Source of the DNA: an uncultured Methanomassiliicoccales archaeon | Lineage (GTDB): Archaea > Thermoplasmatota > Thermoplasmata > RBG-16-68-12 > JAJISG01 | Direction of reading: 5' to 3' | Length of the DNA stretch: 24,000 bases | NCBI GenBank assembly: GCA_964347345.1 | Contig: CAYFYB010000005.1 | Location: 29,547-53,546 of the forward strand | Shown here: piece after piece, positions 3,356 through 21,332 of the stretch | Layout of the letters: each line of letters starts with the position of its first letter | Numbering within the stretch: position 1 is the first letter of the stretch | Position numbers and translations under genes: made by a program | Notes under the pieces: model-generated | What the model saw: the letters and a program-made list of their open reading frames with translations, nothing else | Databases searched by the model: none | Told to the model about the DNA's origin: nothing

Positions 3356-6300
3356 TTAACCTTTTCCTGGGACAGGAGCGTATTCGGAGATTGGTTTGAC
3401 GGATAGGTTCCCGCTCTTCGCCCTCTCTATGGCTTCCACCGCAGCCCTGGCCGCCTCTAGGGTCGTGATGAAGGGGATGTTCAGATCCACTGCGAGCCGT
3501 CTCATCATAAAGCCATCCCTCCTGGCTCCGGAGGTCTCCGTAGGCGTGTTAATTATCAGGTGAATGGCTCCGCCTCGCATCAGGCTGATGGCGTCAGGCT
3601 GCATAGCCTCGCTGATCCTGTACACGGTCTCCACGGGGATCCCCGCCTCCCGGAGGGTGGAAGCTGTCCCCTTGGTGGCGAATATCCGCAGTCCCAGGGC
3701 TGCGAAGCGGGAGGCTATCTCGACGACGTGGGGCTGATCCTCGTCCCTCACGGTAATGTAAACCGATCCGTTCAAGGGTAGGCTGCTGCCCCCGGCAATC
3801 AGGGCCTTGTAGTAGGCCTTTCCGAGATTGGAATCGAGGCCTATCACCTCCCCTGTTGACTTCATCTCCGGCCCCAGAATGCTGTCCACGCCCGGCAACT
3901 TCTGAAAGGGGAAGACAGGGACCTTGACTGCCACATGTTTTACCTTCGCTTCGCCCACATAACCTAGGTCCCTGAGCTTGTGGCCCAACATGACCTTCGT
4001 GGCCACCTTGGCGAGGGGTACTCCGATGGCCTTCGAAACGTAGGGCACCGTCCTGCTGGCCCTGGGATTGGCTTCGAGGACGTACACTGTCCCATCCTTG
4101 ACGGCCAGCTGCAGGTTGATGAGGCCTACCACCCTCAGACCTTTGCATATCTTCTCGGTAATGCTCCTTATCTCCGCCAGGATCTCGGTCGACATGGTCT
4201 GAGGAGGGAGGACGCAGGCCGCGTCCCCGGAATGGACCCCTGCCTCCTCGATATGCTCCTGTATCCCGCCTATGAATACGTCCTCCCCGTCACACAGCGC
4301 GTCCACGTCCACCTCCACCGCATGGGTGAGAAACTTGTCCACCAAGATGGGGTGGTCCCTGGAAACCTCTACTGCCCTCCTCATTAGCCTCTCCAACTCC
4401 CCTTCGCTGTGGACCACCTCCATCCCTCTCCCGCCCAGGACGTAGGAGGGTCTGACCAAGACGGGATATCCGATGCTGGAGGCGATCTCCCTCACATCCT
4501 CGAAGGAGTAGCCGGTAGCGAAAGGAGGCTGTTCGATGCCTAGCTCCTTGAGGAGGCTGGAGAAGCGGGCCCGATCCTCGGCCTTGTCTATGGAATCGGG
4601 AGATGTGCCCAGGATACGCGTGGGGATTCCCCTTCCCTCAATGGCCTCTTGGAGGGGAACGGCCAGGTTGACGGACGTCTGACCCCCGAACTGCAGGATG
4701 ACCCCTTCCGGCTGCTCCAGCTCGATGACGTTGAGGACATCCTCGAGGGTCAGGGGGTCGAAGTAGAGGCGGTCCGAGACGTCGAAGTCCGTGGAGACCG
4801 TCTCGGGATTGCTGTTGATGATGATGGCCACGCATCCCTCCTCACGGAGGGCCATGACGCCATGGACGCAGCAGCCGTCGAACTCAATGCCTTGGGATAT
4901 GCGAATTGGGCCAGAGCCGACGATGAGTACCTTGCGACCTGAAGCCGGCGACAACTCGTTGGCATCCCCGTGGGTGGAGTAGTAGTAGGGAGTGGTGGCC
5001 TCGAACTCGCCCGCGCAGGTGTCCACGACCTTGAAGCAGGCCCTTTTCCTGAGCCTCTCCACCTCCTCCCGACTCGAGCCCGCGAGGAGCGCGATGTAAT
5101 CATCGGGAAGACCGGAGGCCTTGGCCCGCTGCACGTTGGTGGAGGTGAGGCCCTCTCTACGGAGGGAGGTCTCCAGCGCCACCAGCCTCCTTATCCTCTC
5201 CAGGAAGAAGGGATCCCAAAGGGTCAGGGCTGCCACCCTTTCCACCGGGTATTCCCTCCGGAAGGCCTCAGCTATGGCGAAGATCCTCATGTCCGTGGGC
5301 CGCTGCAGTTCCTCCACGAGGGCCGATTCTTCCAGCTCCTCAGGCTCCAGCCCCACCTTTCCCACCTCCAGGGACCGTATGGCCTTCATGAGGGACTCCT
5401 CGAAGGTCCTGCCGATGGCCATGACCTCTCCCGTGGACTTCATCTGGGTGCCGAGTCTCTTGTCGACCATGGGGAACTTGTCGAAGGGCCAACGGGGGAT
5501 CTTGGTTACCACATAGTCCAGGGAAGGCTCGAAGGAGGCCAGGGTTTTCTGGGTGACCTGGTTCGGTATCTCGTCGAGCCTTAGACCCACAGCAATCTTG
5601 GCCGCGATGCGAGCTATTGGATAACCGGTGGCCTTGGATGCCAGGGCTGAGGATCGGGAGACGCGGGGGTTGACCTCGATGACCCTGTACTCGTAGGTCT
5701 CAGGGTGGACGGCAAACTGGATGTTGCATCCGCCCTCGATGCCCAGGGCCCTGATTATCTTGAGAGCGGCGCTCCGAAGGATCTGGTGGTCCCTGTCCCT
5801 GAGGGTCTGGGCCGGGGCCACGACGATGCTCTCCCCCGTATGGAGACCCATGGGGTCCAGGTTCTCCATGGAGCAGACAGTGATGCAGTTGTCCGCCCCG
5901 TCCCGCATCACCTCGTACTCGTACTCCTTCCAGCCCAGGACACATTCTTCCACCAGAACCTGGTGGATCCTGGAATAGGCTAGGCCTATGGAGACGACTC
6001 TCTCAAGATCCTCCTGGCTGGAGATGATGCCGCTACCCGTACCACCGAGGGTGTAGGCGGCCCTCACGATGACGGGCAGGCCGCCTAGCTCATGGACCGC
6101 TCGTCTGGCCTCTTCCAGACTGCTGCATGAAAAGCTCCTCGGAATGGGCTCTCCTATCTTTCTCATAAGAGAGGCGAAGGAGTTGCGATTCTCGGAGGCC
6201 TCGATGGCCGCCAGCCTTGTCCCCAGTATTTCCACGCCGTAGCGCTCCAACACGCCTCTCTCCGCCAGCTCGGAGCAGAGGTTCAGGGCTGTCTGGCCTC

Positions 6301-6609
6301 CCATGCCTGAAAGGACGCCCTGAGGCCTTTCCCGCTGGATAATCTTCTCCAGGAAGGATGGCTCCAGAGGCTCCAGGTATACGGCATCCGCCATGTCTGG
6401 GTCCGTCATGATGGTGGCAGGGTTGGAGTTGACGAGGACGACCTTGATGCCCTCCTCTCGCAGTGCCCTGCAGGCCTGGCTCCCGGAGTAGTCGAATTGC
6501 CGTTCCCTCAGTATCCTGAGGAAATTTCGGCCGCCTGTCCGATCACCACCGGCCCGGAGCCTATGACCAGGACCTTCTCTAAGTCCGCCCTCCTAGGCGA
6601 CGGCCTCAC
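3356..6609 (-). CDS. carB: carbamoyl-phosphate synthase large subunit, interrupted by a 29-nt element. Coding parts are 6609..6526 (28 codons) and 6496..3356, joining to 1074 codons.
   Basis: The 1017-aa ORF (3356-6409) is unmistakably CarB, with two ATP-grasp halves and the MGS-like C-terminus, but starts at [15 protein letters not shown] and so lacks the conserved N-terminus. The missing part is present upstream. GTG at 6609 overlaps the carA stop (GTGA) and encodes [28 protein letters not shown]. After a 29-nt insert, [33 protein letters not shown] continues in the main frame. Read straight through, the 5' piece ends at TGA 6508-6510. Confidence 0.9.
6497..6525 (-). other. 29-nt intervening element inside carB with bulge-helix-bulge geometry (candidate archaeal mRNA intron)
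   Basis: mRNA sense: GCG[GCCG](AA^A)[UUUCCUCAG]GAUA[CUGAGGGAA][CGGC](AA^U)UCGAC. It has a 4-bp helix GCCG/CGGC, 3-nt bulges on opposite strands, and a 9-bp inner stem (one G.U) with a GAUA loop. Removing the 29 nt restores GCC GAA UUC GAC (A-E-F-D) in frame. Confidence 0.55.
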
Positions 6610-7703
6610 CTCCTGTTGGCCTCAGCGTGGCTTTCCACCTCCCTCACAAACTCTCTGAAGATGTATTTGCTGTCATGGGGACCTGGGCTCGCCTCTGGAT
6701 GATACTGCACGGATAGCACTGGGAGTGCCTCATGCCGGAAGCCCTCCACGGTCCTGTCGTTGAGGTTGAGGTGGGTCACCCGCAATTCCTCCCCCAGGCT
6801 TTCCTGCGATATGGCGAAGCCGTGATTCTGAGAGGTGATGTAGACCCTGTCCTTGTCAATGTCGTGGACCGGCTGATTGCCCCCTCGATGGCCAAATTTC
6901 AGCTTGTAGGTCTTGGCCCCAAAGGCCAGTCCGAGGAGCTGGTGACCCAGACATATGCCGAGGATTGGGAAGTCCTCCGCCAGTCGCTTGAGGGTTGGCA
7001 CGACGGAGGAGAGCATCTCCGGGTGGGCGGGGTCTCCAGGACCGTTGGAAACCAAGACTCCGTGGGGCTCCCACGCGGATATCTCATCCGCCGAGGTGGT
7101 GTAAGGAACCTGAAGGACCTCCCCATAGTCCAGCAGGTTGGAGAGGATGCTTCCCTTGACACCGCAGTCCACCAGGACAAACCTCAAGGGCCCTCTCCCC
7201 GGATGGCGGATGGGACGGGAGCATGTGACCCTCTCCACCAGGTTGTAGGCGTCAGGAAAGGGACGGGACCTCACCTCCTCCAGGAGTTCGTCCGCATCGG
7301 CCCCCTCGGTGGAGAGAGCCGCCCTAACGGTGCCGTGGACCCTTGTCTTGATCGTCAGCTCTCGGGTGTCGAGACCCTCAATCCCAGGGATGTCCTCCCT
7401 CGCGAGAAAATCATCCAGACTCATGTCCGAACTCGGGTGGGAGGGACCCCTCCAGAGCTCCTTGATAACGAAACCTTCCACCTGAATCTGGCGGGATTCC
7501 AAGGTGTCGAGATCGACGCCATAGTTTCCAATGAGAGGGTAGGTCATCATTAGGATCTGGCCGCAGTAGGAAGGGTCCGTCAGGGCCTCACAGTAGCCCG
7601 TCATGTTGGTGTTGAAGACCAGCTCGCCGAAAACTGTGGCCTTGGCCCCAAAGGAAGGCCCTCTAGCCATCTTCCCGTCCTCGAGGACTAGGACGCCTTC
7701 CAT
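6606..7703 (-). CDS. carA: carbamoyl-phosphate synthase small subunit (glutamine amidotransferase)
   Basis: 365 aa. CPSase small-chain N-domain ([18 protein letters not shown]...[17 protein letters not shown]), then a GATase domain with GICLGHQ and [12 protein letters not shown]. Stop codon overlaps the carB GTG start. Confidence 0.93.
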
Positions 7704-9005: not shown

Positions 9006-9758
9006 ATGGAGAGGGCTGAGATTCACCTCCTCAAGGAGGTCGACCTTCAAGGTTCGACCCTCATCGACGGCTTTCCCAGCGTGGGCCTCGTCAGCTCCAT
9101 CGTAGCCAACTACTTGGTGGAGATCCTTGAACTTGAACAGATTGGGATCATGGACTCCCCCCGCTTCCCCACCGTAGCCCTGGTGAAGGATGGTATCCCC
9201 CTCAATCCGGTCCGCGTCTACGCGGGAGGCCGAGAAGGCCGCAAGATCGCCATCTTCATCTCGGAGTTTCAGCCTCCCATGGACCTGATCAAGGGCATCG
9301 GAGAGACCGTGCTGGACTGGGCCCTGGAGAAGGGGTGCACCCTCCTCATCTGCCCAGAGGGGCTCATCGTGGAGAGGGAAGAGGGGGTGGAAGTTCAATT
9401 CCAGGTATATGGGATAGGTAGCACGCCCAAGGCCCACGGGATGCTAGTGGAGCATGGGGTGCCCATCTTCGAGGAGGGCGTAATCACGGGCGTCGCCGGG
9501 GTGCTGCTGAACGAGGGGAGGAAGAGGGGGTTCGACGTCGTGGGGTTGCTCTCGGAGGCCCATCCCGACTATCCCGACGCAAGGGCCGCCGCTAGGGTCA
9601 TCGAGACGGTGGACAGGCTCCTTCTGAAGATGAATCTGGATACTGGACCCCTGTACCAAGAGGCGGAGAGGATTGAGGAGCAGCTCAAGAGCATACACCG
9701 GAGGACGGAGGTAATCCGGAGGCCTGAGGGGCCTACAAGGCCCTCGATGTACGGGTAG
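9006..9758 (+). CDS. PAC2 (proteasome assembly chaperone 2)-family protein / COG1938-type archaeal protein
   Basis: 250 aa from ATG 9006. LIDGFPSVGLVSSIVANYLVE...GIMDS..FP... is the N-terminal signature I associate with the PAC2/DUF75 family. The track start at 8952 adds 18 non-conserved-looking residues. Confidence 0.65.
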   Translation: MERAEIHLLKEVDLQGSTLIDGFPSVGLVSSIVANYLVEILELEQIGIMDSPRFPTVALVKDGIPLNPVRVYAGGREGRKIAIFISEFQPPMDLIKGIGETVLDWALEKGCTLLICPEGLIVEREEGVEVQFQVYGIGSTPKAHGMLVEHGVPIFEEGVITGVAGVLLNEGRKRGFDVVGLLSEAHPDYPDARAAARVIETVDRLLLKMNLDTGPLYQEAERIEEQLKSIHRRTEVIRRPEGPTRPSMYG

Positions 9759-10782
9759 GGTGAACCTCGATTCTCGTGAGTCCGTTCAAGGGCCCTAGCC
9801 GGAAGTCCACTCCCGTGAACTTGGTCAACAACCAGATGAGAGTCGAGGCGTGAGCAGTGACCTCCCTCACCAGGAAGGAGGAGGAACCCTGGGCCAGGGC
9901 CATGTAGGGGAGAAGCTGGTCCGCGGCGTGGACATCCATGGTGGCGCCGGCCTTCAGGTCCGCCATCAGCGCCTCCGCCGCTTTTTGACCAATGTCTTCA
10001 GCCCTCACGCCCTTCTCTGCCAGGCCTGAGGACCCTAGCAGGGCGTTCTCCGTCTCCCCCCAGAGGACAATTGCTCCACCTGGGCCCACGGCCTGGGACT
10101 GGTCGTAGACGACCTCCTCGATCTTTGCCTCCTCTAAGCTCATGAGCGACTTCAAGGCGGCCGTTTTCATCCTGTGGGCGATGTGCGCGGGAAGATTGGA
10201 GACGTGGGCTCTCCCGCCAATCTGCCGGACCTTCCCAGGCGTGAGGAGACTCAGAGGTCTGAGGGAGGCAGCGGGCTCGACCCTCACCTCGACTAGGCCG
10301 CCGCCTCGCGGATAGTATCCCCTCCTTTCGACACGCAACTCGGAGTGCACACCCATCCTCGCGAGGTGGGGTAGGAAGACGCGGGCAAAGTAATCGGCGG
10401 GGGGTGACCACTTGACGTCCGTTCCTCCCTTGATCCTCAGCTCCGTCGGGGCCTTGGCGAACGCAGCGGCTAGGAGGCAGGCCTGGAGGACCAGGGTCAC
10501 GCTCCCAGCAGTCCCCACATCGAGAGAGGCGCTCCCTCCCTTGAGGATTCCAGGTCGGAAGACGACCTCACGGGAGGAGGGAGCAAGGCCCTCCGTCTCC
10601 CCATCGCATAGGGAAGCCACCGCCCTGGCGGCGGTAATGTGCTGGCTTGAGAGACCGGGTTTCGGCCTACCTGCCCTAATGTTGACAATTCTGGCAGCCT
10701 CTCCGGTGAGGGCTGACATGGCCAAAGCCGTCCGGAAAAGCTGACCGCCACCCTCTCCATGGGAGCCATCCACCTCAATCAC
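9733..10782 (-). CDS. rtcA: RNA 3'-terminal phosphate cyclase
   Basis: IEVDGSHGEGGGQLFRTALAMSALTGEAARIVNIRAGRPKPGLSSQHI is the RtcA N-terminal signature. A GTG at 10782 is preceded by AGGAGG 7 nt upstream and gives about 349 aa, the normal size. The track's ATG at 10893 adds 37 low-complexity residues. The 3' end overlaps the convergent PAC2 gene by 26 nt. Confidence 0.88.
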   Translation of the reverse strand: MIEVDGSHGEGGGQLFRTALAMSALTGEAARIVNIRAGRPKPGLSSQHITAARAVASLCDGETEGLAPSSREVVFRPGILKGGSASLDVGTAGSVTLVLQACLLAAAFAKAPTELRIKGGTDVKWSPPADYFARVFLPHLARMGVHSELRVERRGYYPRGGGLVEVRVEPAASLRPLSLLTPGKVRQIGGRAHVSNLPAHIAHRMKTAALKSLMSLEEAKIEEVVYDQSQAVGPGGAIVLWGETENALLGSSGLAEKGVRAEDIGQKAAEALMADLKAGATMDVHAADQLLPYMALAQGSSSFLVREVTAHASTLIWLLTKFTGVDFRLGPLNGLTRIEVHPTRTSRAL

Positions 10783-10969
10783 CCAACGGCCTCCTGCCCC
10801 TCTCGAAGCCTTGCACCCATCGTTTTCCGGATTGACTCCCAGCCCTTGAAGGCCACGGTCGGCATGAGGGAAACGAGTACTATGGGGATTCACTCATCCA
10901 GGGCCAGAGGGAGAGCCCTGATAGGTGTCTACACGGTCTCTCGGGCCCGAGGCGCGCCAGCCGTCGCCC

Positions 10970-13501: not shown

Positions 13502-13749
13502 GTCGCTCCTTTGGGAGTGTGTTCGAACGATAAAGAGGTTGCCGACCTATGTGCTCGGACCGCTACAGAGGTTGTGCGATGAGGGAAGCCGGTCCGTGTG
13601 ATCTTCATCTCCATACACCCCTTAGCGCAGCCTGCTGAAAACCCTGTCCGTACGAGTATTTACTTCCCATGCAATAGAGACATATACCTGCGTATTCTAA
13701 GTGAGCCTTTGCTATACACAAGTAAACCTTGCCAAGGAAGGTAATCGGA

Positions 13750-15453
13750 ATGAGGGGGGCATTGCTTCTTAGTCTGGGCCTTTGCGTTGCGCTCGTCGCC
13801 TCTTTTGCGTCATCTGCTTTTCTGACATCCGCAACCGCAAAGGCTAGCGTCCTGCACGATGTCTATCATGATGGGGATTCGGAGAGTCAATGGGTCGAGA
13901 TGAGCCTCGATCCGGAATGTTATCCTTTCACCACTGCAAAGCTTCACACACACATCTCTTGGACCGACCATGTTGTATACCACCTAGCGAGCGACGCTCG
14001 TGGAGGCTACCACGTCAGCCTCCGATTCAACCATCACTACAGCCTCAAGGGCCAGATATGGTTGTACGATTCTGAGAGCGAGAAGTGGGTAGATGGAGGT
14101 CGCTCATCGTTGTCAATTTCCAGCAGAGAAAGTATCAAAGCCCATGTCGCGGAAGAGGAGCTGAAACAAGGTCTGTGGTACTGGACCGAGAGAAAGGCGG
14201 TTAGCGCAAGCTCCTTCAACCCATGTACGAAGGAATGGGAGGTAAGAGAGCATACTTTTGAGGTGCGCTATCTCCTCAAGTTCTCGAAGGGAGAAATCCA
14301 GTTCCTAAAGGTCCTGAAATCGCCCGTGCGTCTGACCGGTGTGGTCTATGATCGAGGCGTGGACACGGACGGTGATGGCACCTATGACTACCTGGAGATA
14401 GGGGTTGGGGTCAAGGTCGACGTCCCAGGATTCTACTACATTGTCATAAGTGATCTGCGAGATGGCGACTACAACTACATCCGCATCACAGGCACTCAAT
14501 GGCTATACCTCGATGCGGGGTCACACGTAGTGGACCTCACCTTGTATGGCCCCCGCATACGCGGATCTGGCATCGACCCCTCCCACATCGGGGGGATAAC
14601 GGCAAACTACTACGATCCTGTCTGGGGTGGGTCTGCATTTGATAGCCTGACCGATATCCCCCTCTCCAGGACGTATCTTCATACTGAGTTCGATGCACCA
14701 GGGGCACCGACCATCAGCATCATCTCGGACCGAGGCATCGACACTGATAACAACGGATTCTACAACTATCTGGAAATAGGCGTCGAGGTCCGGGTCGACG
14801 TGGATGGGGTCTACAGGGTCATGTTGGACGGGCTTACAGATGACGCAGGGAACCTCATATGGACTGTGTCAATAGCGGGAGATTACCTGAGGGAGGGGAC
14901 GAACGTTCTCTACCTGGTGATAGACGGTCAGACGATCTACTACTCAGGCATCGACCCGAGTCGCGTTGCATCCCTCACACTAACTGACCCGGATGGGGAG
15001 GAGATCAGCCTCAGAGATGTGCCTCTCTCAAGGACGTATCTCCACACAGAGTTCGAAGCGCCACCGCCTCCTCCGCCTCCCACGGCGGCCCTAACCGGCT
15101 TCACAACGGATCGCGGTGTTGACACGGATGGGAACGGGCTATACAACTATCTGGAAATAGGTGTCGAGGTCCGGGTCGACGAGGCTGGATACTACAATGT
15201 CATTCTCTACTGGCTGCTTGACGAAGTGGGGAACTGGATATGGGTGTGGGGCAGCGACTCCGCCTATCTCGACGTCGGAACACAGTTCATATACCTCAGG
15301 CTAGACGGGTCAACTATTCGCGCCGAGGGCCTCAATCCAGCGTATATTTGGTGGATAAGTTTGTACGATGAGAACTGGAACCCTCAGGGTTCTCTTGAGC
15401 ATATCCCGTTGTCGCAGACGTACCTCTACACCGACTTCGAGGAGCCGCCATAA
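13750..15453 (+). CDS. secreted or cell-surface protein of unknown family: signal peptide, His-rich N-domain, then three tandem ~126-aa modules with DxDxDG calcium-binding-like motifs
   Basis: ATG 13750 is preceded by aaGGAAGGtaatcgga. N-terminus MRGALLLSLGLCVALVASFASSAFLTSATAKA is signal-peptide-like. Modules start DRGVDTDGDGTYDYLEIGVGVKVD, DRGIDTDNNGFYNYLEIGVEVRVD and DRGVDTDGNGLYNYLEIGVEVRVD, and end (I/V)PLS(R/Q)TYL(H/Y)T(E/D)F(D/E). A Pro7 linker separates modules 2 and 3. Confidence 0.8.
   Translation: MRGALLLSLGLCVALVASFASSAFLTSATAKASVLHDVYHDGDSESQWVEMSLDPECYPFTTAKLHTHISWTDHVVYHLASDARGGYHVSLRFNHHYSLKGQIWLYDSESEKWVDGGRSSLSISSRESIKAHVAEEELKQGLWYWTERKAVSASSFNPCTKEWEVREHTFEVRYLLKFSKGEIQFLKVLKSPVRLTGVVYDRGVDTDGDGTYDYLEIGVGVKVDVPGFYYIVISDLRDGDYNYIRITGTQWLYLDAGSHVVDLTLYGPRIRGSGIDPSHIGGITANYYDPVWGGSAFDSLTDIPLSRTYLHTEFDAPGAPTISIISDRGIDTDNNGFYNYLEIGVEVRVDVDGVYRVMLDGLTDDAGNLIWTVSIAGDYLREGTNVLYLVIDGQTIYYSGIDPSRVASLTLTDPDGEEISLRDVPLSRTYLHTEFEAPPPPPPPTAALTGFTTDRGVDTDGNGLYNYLEIGVEVRVDEAGYYNVILYWLLDEVGNWIWVWGSDSAYLDVGTQFIYLRLDGSTIRAEGLNPAYIWWISLYDENWNPQGSLEHIPLSQTYLYTDFEEPP
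14335..15450 (+). repeat. three tandem coding repeats, period 378-381 nt, inside the secreted-protein gene
   Basis: Module DRG codons begin at 14350, 14728 and 15109. Copies 2 and 3 share a near-identical ~40-nt stretch: (c/a)tacaactatctggaaatagg(c/t)gtcgaggtccgggtcgacg at about 14761 and 15141. The module ends are also similar (ctctc(c/a)aggacgtatct...gagttcga). Confidence 0.85.
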
Positions 15454-15478: not shown

Positions 15479-15550
15479 TGCGGCCGCCGGGATTCGAACC
15501 CGGGCTAGAGGCTTGGGAAGCCTCGGTCCTAACCGCTAGACTACGGCCGC
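15479..15550 (-). tRNA. tRNA-Gly (anticodon CCC)
   Basis: The reverse complement GCGGCCGUAGUCUAGCGGUUAGGACCGAGGCUUCCCAAGCCUCUAGCCCGGGUUCGAAUCCCGGCGGCCGCA folds as a cloverleaf. Acceptor GCGGCCG/CGGCCGC, D-stem GUCU/GGAC, anticodon stem GAGGC/GCCUC with loop UUCCCAA, T-arm CCGGG-UUCGAAU-CCCGG, discriminator A. No encoded CCA and no intron. Confidence 0.93.
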
Positions 15551-20418: not shown

Positions 20419-21186
20419 CTAGCAGAATACCGATATCTCAACCTGTCTCGTTCGCTCCCGGAATCCCGTGTCGATGGCTGGCAGTGGTTCCGATATCGCC
20501 ATCTGAGAGGAGTGAAGCCCGGTGACGTAGTCCTCCAGCACGGACTGGTTCGGGGGTACGGGCAGAAACGGTGTGCTCCTGCCCTCTGCGGGAATGGATA
20601 CGAGGAGGCCGCCCTTGATGTTCTGTATCCTCACCACCTTATCGGCCATCTGGTGGAGGAGGTTTCCAATGCCCCTCCTCCTGTACAGCTGGGAGAGGCC
20701 GTGATTGGTCACCAGACCTATGATCTCTTCCTCCCTCACCAGGTCTCTCACCCCTTTCAGTCCCCGTCGGAGGAGGTGGTAGGCCTCCTGGTACTCCACA
20801 TCCTCGTCCATGAAGAGGTCTGGCAAACAGGCTAGGACCAGGAGTCCGGGGCCCGCTCTCACCTCTTCCTCCAGGGATTCCAGCAGAAGGGAGGCCATCT
20901 GGTAGGCGGTGAAGGCCCGGGCAACCCTTATGCGGCCCAGCACCCTCTGCCTAGGCACTCCATGCCTCTTGGCGAGGGAGGCGATGGTATAGGGGTTGAT
21001 GGAGTTCCCGCCATCCACGTAGACCACCTCCCTGTCGAAGTCTAGGATGTGGCGGACGCACAGCAGAAAGGTCAGGTCGTGGACGAAGCTGCTGGCGCTG
21101 TTCAGGAAGGTGACCTTGGAGGGCTCGAATCCCCCCAGAAGGTTATCCAGTATCCCGTTGGAAGTGTAAAGCCTAGGGGGGCTCAT
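20419..21186 (-). CDS. RadB/RecA-superfamily-like protein with degenerate nucleotide-binding motifs
   Basis: 255 aa from ATG 21186 (GGAGG 11 nt upstream). TSNGILDNLLGGFEPSKVTFL aligns with RadA/RadB STG...LD.LLGGG...G.(I/L)T...G. The expected GxxGxGK(T/S) is replaced by NSASSFVH. A RadB-like VYVD, LLVL..LPDLF and GLVTNH core follows. Confidence 0.6.
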   Translation of the reverse strand: MSPPRLYTSNGILDNLLGGFEPSKVTFLNSASSFVHDLTFLLCVRHILDFDREVVYVDGGNSINPYTIASLAKRHGVPRQRVLGRIRVARAFTAYQMASLLLESLEEEVRAGPGLLVLACLPDLFMDEDVEYQEAYHLLRRGLKGVRDLVREEEIIGLVTNHGLSQLYRRRGIGNLLHQMADKVVRIQNIKGGLLVSIPAEGRSTPFLPVPPNQSVLEDYVTGLHSSQMAISEPLPAIDTGFRERTRQVEISVFC

Positions 21187-21332
21187 CCTAACTTGGCCTC
21201 CTGTTGTCAACCTCCCCGCGAAGCGGTAAGCGTGAAGGGCTTACCACCCCTCCATATAAAGGGGGACGGGGGGGAGGTGGCTAAAAGTGATCCCAGGAAG
21301 AGCCTTAAGACGCATCTGGCCATGTCAGGGAC

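Follow-up and report, generated by a model that had tools for sequence, protein, structure and literature searches.

How can a carbamoyl-phosphate synthase gene yield its product when the N-terminal motif of that product is encoded in two pieces that lie in different reading frames? The question is raised by the essential gene carB in a stretch of 24,000 nt from contig CAYFYB010000005.1 of an uncultured Methanomassiliicoccales archaeon. This whole stretch is called the window below; carB lies on its minus strand and all positions are window coordinates. The GTG start of carB (6609-6607) overlaps the stop codon of carA (TGA, 6608-6606) as GTGA. Reading on from the first 28 codons adds the residues ISSGY and then meets an in-frame TGA at 6510-6508, inside an insert of 29 nt. 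The remainder of the CarB N-terminal motif picks up at 6496 in a different frame, which is open to a stop at 3356. The unspliced carB mRNA can thus encode only a peptide of 33 residues, and its string across the junction is GGCGGCCGAAATTTCCTCAGG.

We propose that the 29-nt insert is a spliced archaeal mRNA intron of the bulge-helix-bulge (BHB) type, a reading to which we assign a probability of roughly 0.85. The structure of the insert, its conservation and covariation in related genes, the exact restoration of the frame and purifying selection on the gene are all read directly from sequence. In silico removal of positions 6497-6525 left a carB of 3225 nt, that is 1074 codons and a stop, with no internal stop codon. 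The first 120 residues of the spliced CarB gave unbroken alignments (97% coverage, at most about 80% identity) with CarB N-termini that carry the preATP-grasp domain PF25596. The predicted spliced junction reads GCCGAA-TTCGAC or, as longer strings, GGCGGCCGAA joined to TTCGACTACTCC and GATCGGACAGGCGGCCGAA joined to TTCGACTACTCCGGGAGC. A preliminary description of the locus had reported the GTGA overlap, the read-through into ISSGY and TGA and the resumption at 6496, and had proposed that deletion of the 29 nt would give a single carB of 1074 codons. The minus-strand sequence and the table of open reading frames (ORFs) agree with the former in every detail, and the spliced sequence of 3225 nt verified the latter. 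The features of the locus are listed in Table 1.

Table 1. Features of the carA-carB locus and predicted elements of the insert (window coordinates).
Feature	Position	Strand	Basis or remark
carA, carbamoyl-phosphate synthase small subunit	6606..7703	-	ORF list; Pfam CPSase_sm_chain + GATase on identical protein
carB exon 1, 28 codons from GTG, 3' end GCG GCC GAA	6526..6609	-	minus-strand reading; homologous CarB N-termini contiguous over the junction
Predicted 29-nt intron AUUUCCUCAGGAUACUGAGGGAACGGCAA	6497..6525	-	homologous inserts of 17-32 nt at the same junction
carB exon 2, 1046 codons + stop, first codons UUC GAC UAC	3356..6496	-	ORF list; in silico splice
Central helix H, 5' strand, exon GCCG	6528..6531	-	pairs with 6499-6502; kept in 15/15 genes
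5' 3-nt bulge AAA, predicted cut between 6526 and 6525	6525..6527	-	fold and comparison; rule in PMC2738675
Intronic helix h', 9 bp (6524-6516 with 6511-6503, one G.U), loop GAUA 6515-6512	6503..6524	-	fold
Central helix H, 3' strand, intron CGGC	6499..6502	-	fold and covariation
3' unpaired trinucleotide AAU, predicted cut between 6497 and 6496, relaxed side	6496..6498	-	fold and comparison

RNA structure of the 29-nt insert

The RNA of positions 6550-6480 folded with a minimum free energy (MFE) of -27.1 kcal/mol (z = -2.84), and none of 200 shuffled sequences was as stable. In this fold, G6531-C6530-C6529-G6528 at the end of exon 1 paired with C6502-G6501-G6500-C6499 of the insert. The central helix of 4 bp, the 3-nt bulge on the 5' side, the three unpaired nucleotides on the 3' side and the inner helix of 9 bp were recovered as they had been described beforehand, and the accompanying caveat that the outer helix is weak also holds. 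Beside the 3' trinucleotide, the exonic helix h consists of 1 bp only (G.U or A-U), or of a G-C/C-G pair if the bulge is taken as 4 nt. The AAU itself has no adjacent closing exon helix, and the MFE fold uses instead a distant UCGGA/UUCGA pairing over a loop of 6 nt. Because the exonic helix h is not conserved in homologues, the predicted carB element is classed as a relaxed HBh' motif that falls short of the strict hBHBh' form: its 5' site is canonical and its 3' site, without a conserved exonic helix, is loop-like.

The frequency of such motifs was estimated by scanning the window and shuffled versions of it. Each shuffled version of 24 kb contained, on average, about 1.3 cases of a 4-bp helix combined with at least 9 inner bp. 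As this loose motif is not rare in shuffled sequence, its presence in carB proves nothing when taken alone. It carries weight because its position and length were set independently by the protein alignment; with both specified, the motif would arise by chance with a frequency of about 6e-7, a figure that rises to about 2e-6 when three registers are allowed for. Searching the whole window with Rfam at the gathering threshold returned a tRNA as the sole match and assigned the insert to no RNA family. A self-splicing group I or group II intron was considered and rejected, as there was no Rfam match and 29 nt is far too short for a ribozyme.

Inserts at the same junction in related carB genes

Fetched carB loci were searched again with tblastn. 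In 'Euryarchaeota archaeon RBG_16_67_27' (MGVZ01000064, locus L004; CarB 69.6% identical to that of the window) the match changes frame at residue 28. The gene reads CAG GCA GCC GAA, then AUCGGUUGAGGACGUCCCUCUCCCGACGGCAG, then UUC GAC UAC, so that an insert of 32 nt stands at the identical Glu-Phe junction. Its hairpin sequence differs from that of the window, the GCCG/CGGC helix and the AAA bulge are alike, and the frame is open once the insert is removed. In three relatives as close as this one (L002, L003 and L005) the junction is uninterrupted, L005 reading exactly GCCGAATTCGAC (GCCGAA-TTCGAC). Metagenomes were then scanned with a pattern that fixes exon codons only and places no constraint on the insert, CAGGCNGCNGAR N{15,45} TTYGAYTAYTCNGG. 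This gave 25 loci, namely 18 carB N-termini with an insert (14 of them distinct) and 7 unrelated chance matches. The 18 carB loci share the form VIGSGP[IV]VIGQAAE, insert, FDYSG[ST]QAC. With identical inserts counted once (L097, L099, L095, L004 and L101 merged), the scan and the window together provide 15 distinct insert-bearing carB sequences, all interrupted at the same Glu-Phe junction. The insert is 17 nt in L083, 25 nt in L084, 29 nt in the window, L090, L091, L102, L105, L106 and L107, 31 nt in L085 (identical in L097 and L099) and 32 nt in L088 (identical in L095 and L004), L089, L094 (identical in L101), L098 and L100. None of these lengths is a multiple of 3, and the sequences differ. 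Aligning related carB genes had been put forward earlier as a check; the alignment places the insert in 14 further distinct genes, finds it missing from L002, L003 and L005, and reveals covariation within it.

Insert-bearing genes were found in independent assemblies of many projects (JGI Ga... contigs, JABAO... records, MGVZ01000064). This makes it extremely unlikely that the 29 nt are an assembly or sequencing artefact, or a population polymorphism that is not fixed in the genome. The same carA protein is moreover encoded by two contigs in the range of 50-200 kb, with a maximum of 137.5 kb, and an artefact would explain neither the covariation nor the pairing between insert and exon. One observation fits such an origin: Logan contig ERR2564002_326605 (L001), an independent assembly of run ERR2564002, ends exactly at the 5' splice site GCCGAA. 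It covers carA and carB codons 1-28 and stops at its position 2561, equivalent to window position 6526, with GCGGCCGAA. An end at the very base of the splice site suggests a branch in the assembly graph, for example through a co-existing intron-less allele, in which the next base would be T and not A.

The architecture of the predicted intron is the same throughout the set. In 15 of 15 sequences, the four exon bases that precede the last two form a Watson-Crick helix H of 4 bp with intron bases -6 to -3, and an inner helix of 3-10 bp (9 bp in the window) begins right after the first intron base. Helix H departs from GCCG/CGGC in L083, where it is GCUG/CAGC: the Ala codon has changed synonymously, and the intron has the complementary change. 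Base pairs were counted on a MAFFT alignment that had not been fitted to any structure. Over 13 pairs, 96.6% of the cells were paired, compared with 38-58% when the partner was slid by 1-3 columns. Changes on both sides were seen in 6 pairs (24 cells), and neither the pairing nor the covariation score observed was reached in any of 500 shuffles. The intronic helix h' showed changes on both sides in 5 of its 9 aligned pairs, with 95% of cells paired. The 5' bulge is canonical, 3 nt long, in all 15 sequences (AAA, AGA or AAU). The 3' trinucleotide occurs as AAU, ACU, AGU, AUU or CAU, without a conserved closing helix.

These variants fix the register of the predicted cuts. In the window the register is ambiguous because of the flanking AA repeat. 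In five genes with AC, AU or CA at the 3' site (L085, L090, L094, L100 and L107), only cuts after the second bulge nucleotide yield GAA or GAG followed by UUC (Glu-Phe), and a shift by one base turns the invariant Glu into Asp. The two-cut register gives GAR-UUC in every gene. The earlier proposal that cleavage after the second nucleotide of each bulge restores the frame is therefore borne out at the level of sequence, the register being unique in the five genes where it is unambiguous. As a separate observation, the spliced junction (window 6492-6499 joined to 6526-6529) forms a perfect palindrome of 8 nt, CGAAUUCG (CGAA-UUCG), with the splice point at its centre; the intron-less L003 and L005 have it too.

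The covarying pairs and the cut sites were also compared with translational bypassing, in which ribosomes would hop over the 29 nt and the hairpin would promote take-off. Phage T4 gene 60 provides a precedent, its ribosomes bypassing a gap of 50 nt. A stable hairpin directly after the last codon of exon 1, together with a stop codon inside the gap, would suit such a hop. The codons do not match: take-off would be from GAA or GAG, and the triplet before UUC is CAA, CAG, CAC, CAU or CCA. The gap also varies from 17 to 32 nt, and the features that are conserved, namely the complementarity of CGGC to exon GCCG with its covariation in L083 and the two 3-nt bulges, are traits of a BHB substrate. We consider bypassing highly improbable.

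A BHB-type intron further predicts that the interrupted genes are functional, and this bears on whether carB is a pseudogene, that is, a dead or decaying gene inactivated by the insertion of a small hairpin element or by a replication slip. The insert does shift the frame and leads to a stop after 5 codons. In addition, neither the 1017-aa ORF nor the 1046-aa product of exon 2 nor the spliced CarB of 1074 aa has an exact match in the protein collection, from which it follows that the source annotators called neither the 1017-aa nor the 1074-aa product. Against inactivation stand 15 distinct genes that have the insert at one junction and are otherwise undamaged for over 1040 codons, and an insert structure that is kept by compensatory changes. 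In silico spliced ORFs continued for 1042-1056 further codons to a stop in all 9 loci that were long enough, and were open to the contig end in the shorter ones. Pairwise ratios of nonsynonymous to synonymous divergence (dN/dS) between intron-bearing carB genes were 0.07-0.18, with dS of 0.8-1.8. With synonymous sites thus near saturation, these ratios indicate long purifying selection with the insert in place throughout. Combined, these data render a pseudogene very unlikely, and purifying selection acts on both exons, the whole of exon 2 included, which implies the production of full-length CarB.

Predicted processing and comparison with known systems

For the proposed intron, processing would start on the carA-carB transcript, in which the GCCG at the end of exon 1 would pair with CGGC of the intron to form the central helix of 4 bp. 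The 9-bp hairpin of the intron would stack on one side of H, exposing two single strands of 3 nt on opposite strands. In each of these single strands, the splicing endonuclease EndA would cleave 3' of the second nucleotide, at 6526/6525 and at 6497/6496, and an RtcB-type ligase would join GCC GAA to UUC GAC. The product would carry the invariant motif GQAAEFDYSG within a CarB of 1074 aa. We infer the enzymes, as well as the occurrence of excision and ligation.

Introns of this kind are known from the cbf5 gene of Crenarchaeota, where they measure 16-44 bp and adopt an 'unconventional BHB' (Yokobori 2009, PMC2738675). For cbf5, the expected exon-intron borders coincided with cleavage between bulge residues 2 and 3, and partial cDNAs agreed with these predictions (PMC2738675). 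The carB and cbf5 cases are alike in that both concern short and mostly relaxed BHB-type introns in coding sequence (17-32 nt and 16-44 bp, respectively), with predicted cuts between the second and third bulge residues, a codon context within an invariant motif and patchy gain and loss. They differ in host and gene, cbf5 encoding an RNA-modification enzyme in Desulfurococcales and Sulfolobales whereas carB encodes a metabolic enzyme in a Thermoplasmatota-related lineage. The cbf5 intron lies at the codon of the catalytic Asp; the carB intron is not a member of that family and belongs to the same class of mechanism. Further, cbf5 introns have been linked to the crenarchaeal heterotetrameric EndA, which is not expected in the carB host, and their splicing was demonstrated with cDNA, whereas that of carB is deduced from sequence. 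The cbf5 pre-mRNA intron is reportedly also treated in Watanabe 2002 and Yoshinari 2006.

Other systems share part of these features. In Haloferax volcanii, HVO_1309 has a BHB intron in the 5' untranslated region (UTR) of its mRNA that is cleaved in vitro (PMC7714728). Like carB it offers an EndA substrate in an mRNA of euryarchaeal grade, cleavage being shown in vitro for HVO_1309 and predicted for carB. The HVO_1309 intron lies in the untranslated leader and leaves the reading frame intact, whereas no CarB protein could be made unless the carB intron were excised precisely. Relaxed HBh' introns at non-canonical positions of tRNA genes (Marck & Grosjean 2003) have the same 4-bp H, canonical bulge and h', and an exonic helix that is weak or missing. 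There is no tRNA body at carB, and its helix H is built from codons (GCC G-AA) and is therefore constrained by the protein sequence. HAC1 and XBP1 mRNAs are alike in having a short intron in coding mRNA that is removed without the spliceosome by an endonuclease and an RNA ligase, with a change of frame. They are unlike carB in that IRE1 recognises twin stem-loops and the reaction is regulated by stress; for carB no sign of regulation was found. In metazoans, XBP1 splicing is carried out by IRE1 with a ligase of the RtcB type.

Several points weigh against a spliced BHB-type intron. According to Hirata, Kanai and co-workers, EndA enzymes of the alpha4 and alpha'2 types, the second of which is that of Thermoplasmatales, accept the strict BHB only. 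The homologues do not share a conserved exonic helix, and the alternative pairings, with a 4-nt bulge or with the distant UCGG/UCGA, are specific to a clade or unable to covary. Neither endA nor rtcB lies in the 24-kb window, and the spliced 1074-aa CarB is absent from the protein collection searched. Regarding the enzyme, Hirata, Kanai and co-workers also found that specificity loops count more than subunit type. The literature is divided on such motifs, since according to Tocchini-Valentini et al. homodimeric EndA does cleave motifs that resemble a bulge-helix-loop (BHL), and the homodimer of Ferroplasma cuts minimal BHB substrates. A search of the PDB with EndA of M. jannaschii returned known structures only, without a link to the EndA of this metagenome-assembled genome (MAG), and was set aside.

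The relaxed 3' site also bears on a different outcome, in which the insert is a real EndA substrate that is poorly ligated or only partially processed, so that its main effect is to down-regulate or degrade the carB mRNA. An EndA of strict type is reported to cut HBh' motifs mainly at the canonical bulge, as this outcome would have it. The strong purifying selection on exons 1 and 2 speaks against it, and so does the exact frame that the two-cut rule restores for inserts of every length. We regard this outcome as quite unlikely.

The preliminary description had stated that mRNA introns are known only for cbf5 in Crenarchaeota. For coding sequence the statement stands; for mRNAs in general it is too narrow, given the 5'-UTR BHB intron of HVO_1309 in Haloferax (PMC7714728). 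Papers of 2020 and 2025 cite cbf5 as the only archaeal coding-sequence intron, the 2020 paper adding its own 5'-UTR example. Literature searches that linked carB or its enzyme to BHB elements, introns or the splicing endonuclease found no report of a carB intron, a result that is provisional as subscription literature was not covered. The mechanism class of the carB intron is known, as in cbf5; its gene and phylum are new.

For more than 20 years, archaeal coding-sequence introns have rested on one gene, cbf5, in one phylum. The predicted carB intron would be a second and independent case, in a central metabolic gene of a lineage outside the TACK archaea, with splice sites defined to the nucleotide by comparison. 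The range of mRNAs on which EndA and RtcB act would then seem wider than had been assumed, and the case challenges, or at least tests, the proposed tie between mRNA introns and heteromeric EndA of relaxed specificity. With their covariation, the inserts of 17-32 nt form a natural series of substrates for biochemistry. The intron would also explain the frameshifted look of carB in these MAGs; a carB split in this way could be annotated as a pseudogene and mis-scored as arginine or pyrimidine auxotrophy in metabolic reconstructions.

A wider extension is tentative and in our view rather doubtful, namely that endonuclease-dependent splicing of mRNA may be part of normal gene expression in an uncultured clade of Thermoplasmatota and beyond. 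The Glu-Phe site, at the centre of CGAA-UUCG, would then be either a recurrent hot spot of insertion or the seat of an ancient intron that has been lost repeatedly. If such splicing were clade-wide, EndA of these lineages would be broader in specificity than assumed for euryarchaeal enzymes, and the intron might couple the synthesis of CarB to tRNA-splicing activity, by analogy with HAC1/XBP1.

Distribution and genomic surroundings

Among 185,579 species genomes, the closest CarB proteins were about 70% identical and came from MAGs labelled Euryarchaeota archaeon or Methanobacteriota archaeon; the next matches were from Thermoplasmata, Methanomassiliicoccales and Methanomethylophilaceae. Judged by CarB similarity and by record titles, the host most likely belongs to Thermoplasmatota and not to Crenarchaeota. 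In a neighbour-joining tree of CarB, the genes with a 29-nt insert formed one clade. Its sister comprised the genes with inserts of 31 and 32 nt, with the intron-less L003 and L005 and the adjoining L002 nested inside. L083, with its insert of 17 nt, was remote from both and stood beside the intron-less L017 and L030. This distribution would be explained either by an old intron with repeated losses or by repeated insertion at one site. In a collection of 5.8 billion proteins, no CarB more than 81% identical to that of the window over the junction was found, and the window's clade was represented by neither a spliced nor an intron-less copy. The data are consistent with an intron that is fixed in the 29-nt clade.

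The two shortest inserts stand in distant CarB genes. In L083 (1609-1651) the 17 nt form the hairpin CUC-GCUA-GAG beside the GCUG/CAGC helix, and in L084 (205-255) the 25 nt interrupt a gene fragment whose N-terminus is 80% identical to the CarB of Methanothrix. Their presence suggests that, beyond Thermoplasmatota, either the intron is ancient or the site has received insertions repeatedly.

One tRNA gene of the clade varies in a similar manner. At 1235-1319 of L090 lies a tRNA-Gly(CCC) of 85 nt, mis-called tRNA-Trp by ARAGORN, with an intron of 13 nt, AGAUUGCGGGACA, at 37/38 whose intronic helix is almost absent. The syntenic ortholog in the window (15479-15550, minus strand) is 72 nt long and intron-less. 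Short BHB introns have thus been gained or lost between close relatives. The 13-nt intron of L090 also indicates that the splicing machinery is active in the clade and tolerant of minimal motifs.

The archaeal genes of the window include a split GMP synthase, the proteasome chaperone PAC2, NEP1, PurP, HerA and RtcA. The latter, an RNA 3'-terminal phosphate cyclase (9733-10893, minus strand; Pfam RTC and RTC_insert, E = 1e-81), is encoded about 3 kb upstream of carA. RtcA produces 2',3'-cyclic phosphate ends, which are those joined by RtcB ligase. Its closeness to carA is probably a coincidence.

Further coding introns were sought by de novo BHB scans of the window and the clade loci, which gave hundreds to 1692 matches, numbers comparable to those in shuffled sequence, and were dropped as noise. 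An ORF of 574 aa at 13729-15453 (plus strand) had no Pfam match at E <= 1e-5, and its exact sequence, with a TTG start, was absent from the protein collection. Among the scan candidates, 21209-21275 was rejected as a split gene, being instead a promoter-proximal 5'-UTR hairpin. On the minus strand, 21210-21260 contains a TATA-like box TTTATATGG (21260-21252), a perfect hairpin of 7 bp, GGTAAGC...GCTTACC (21245-21225), and GGAGG. These elements immediately precede a Rad51/KaiC-like ORF (20419-21210) with its TTG start at 21210. This segment looks like a structured 5' leader.

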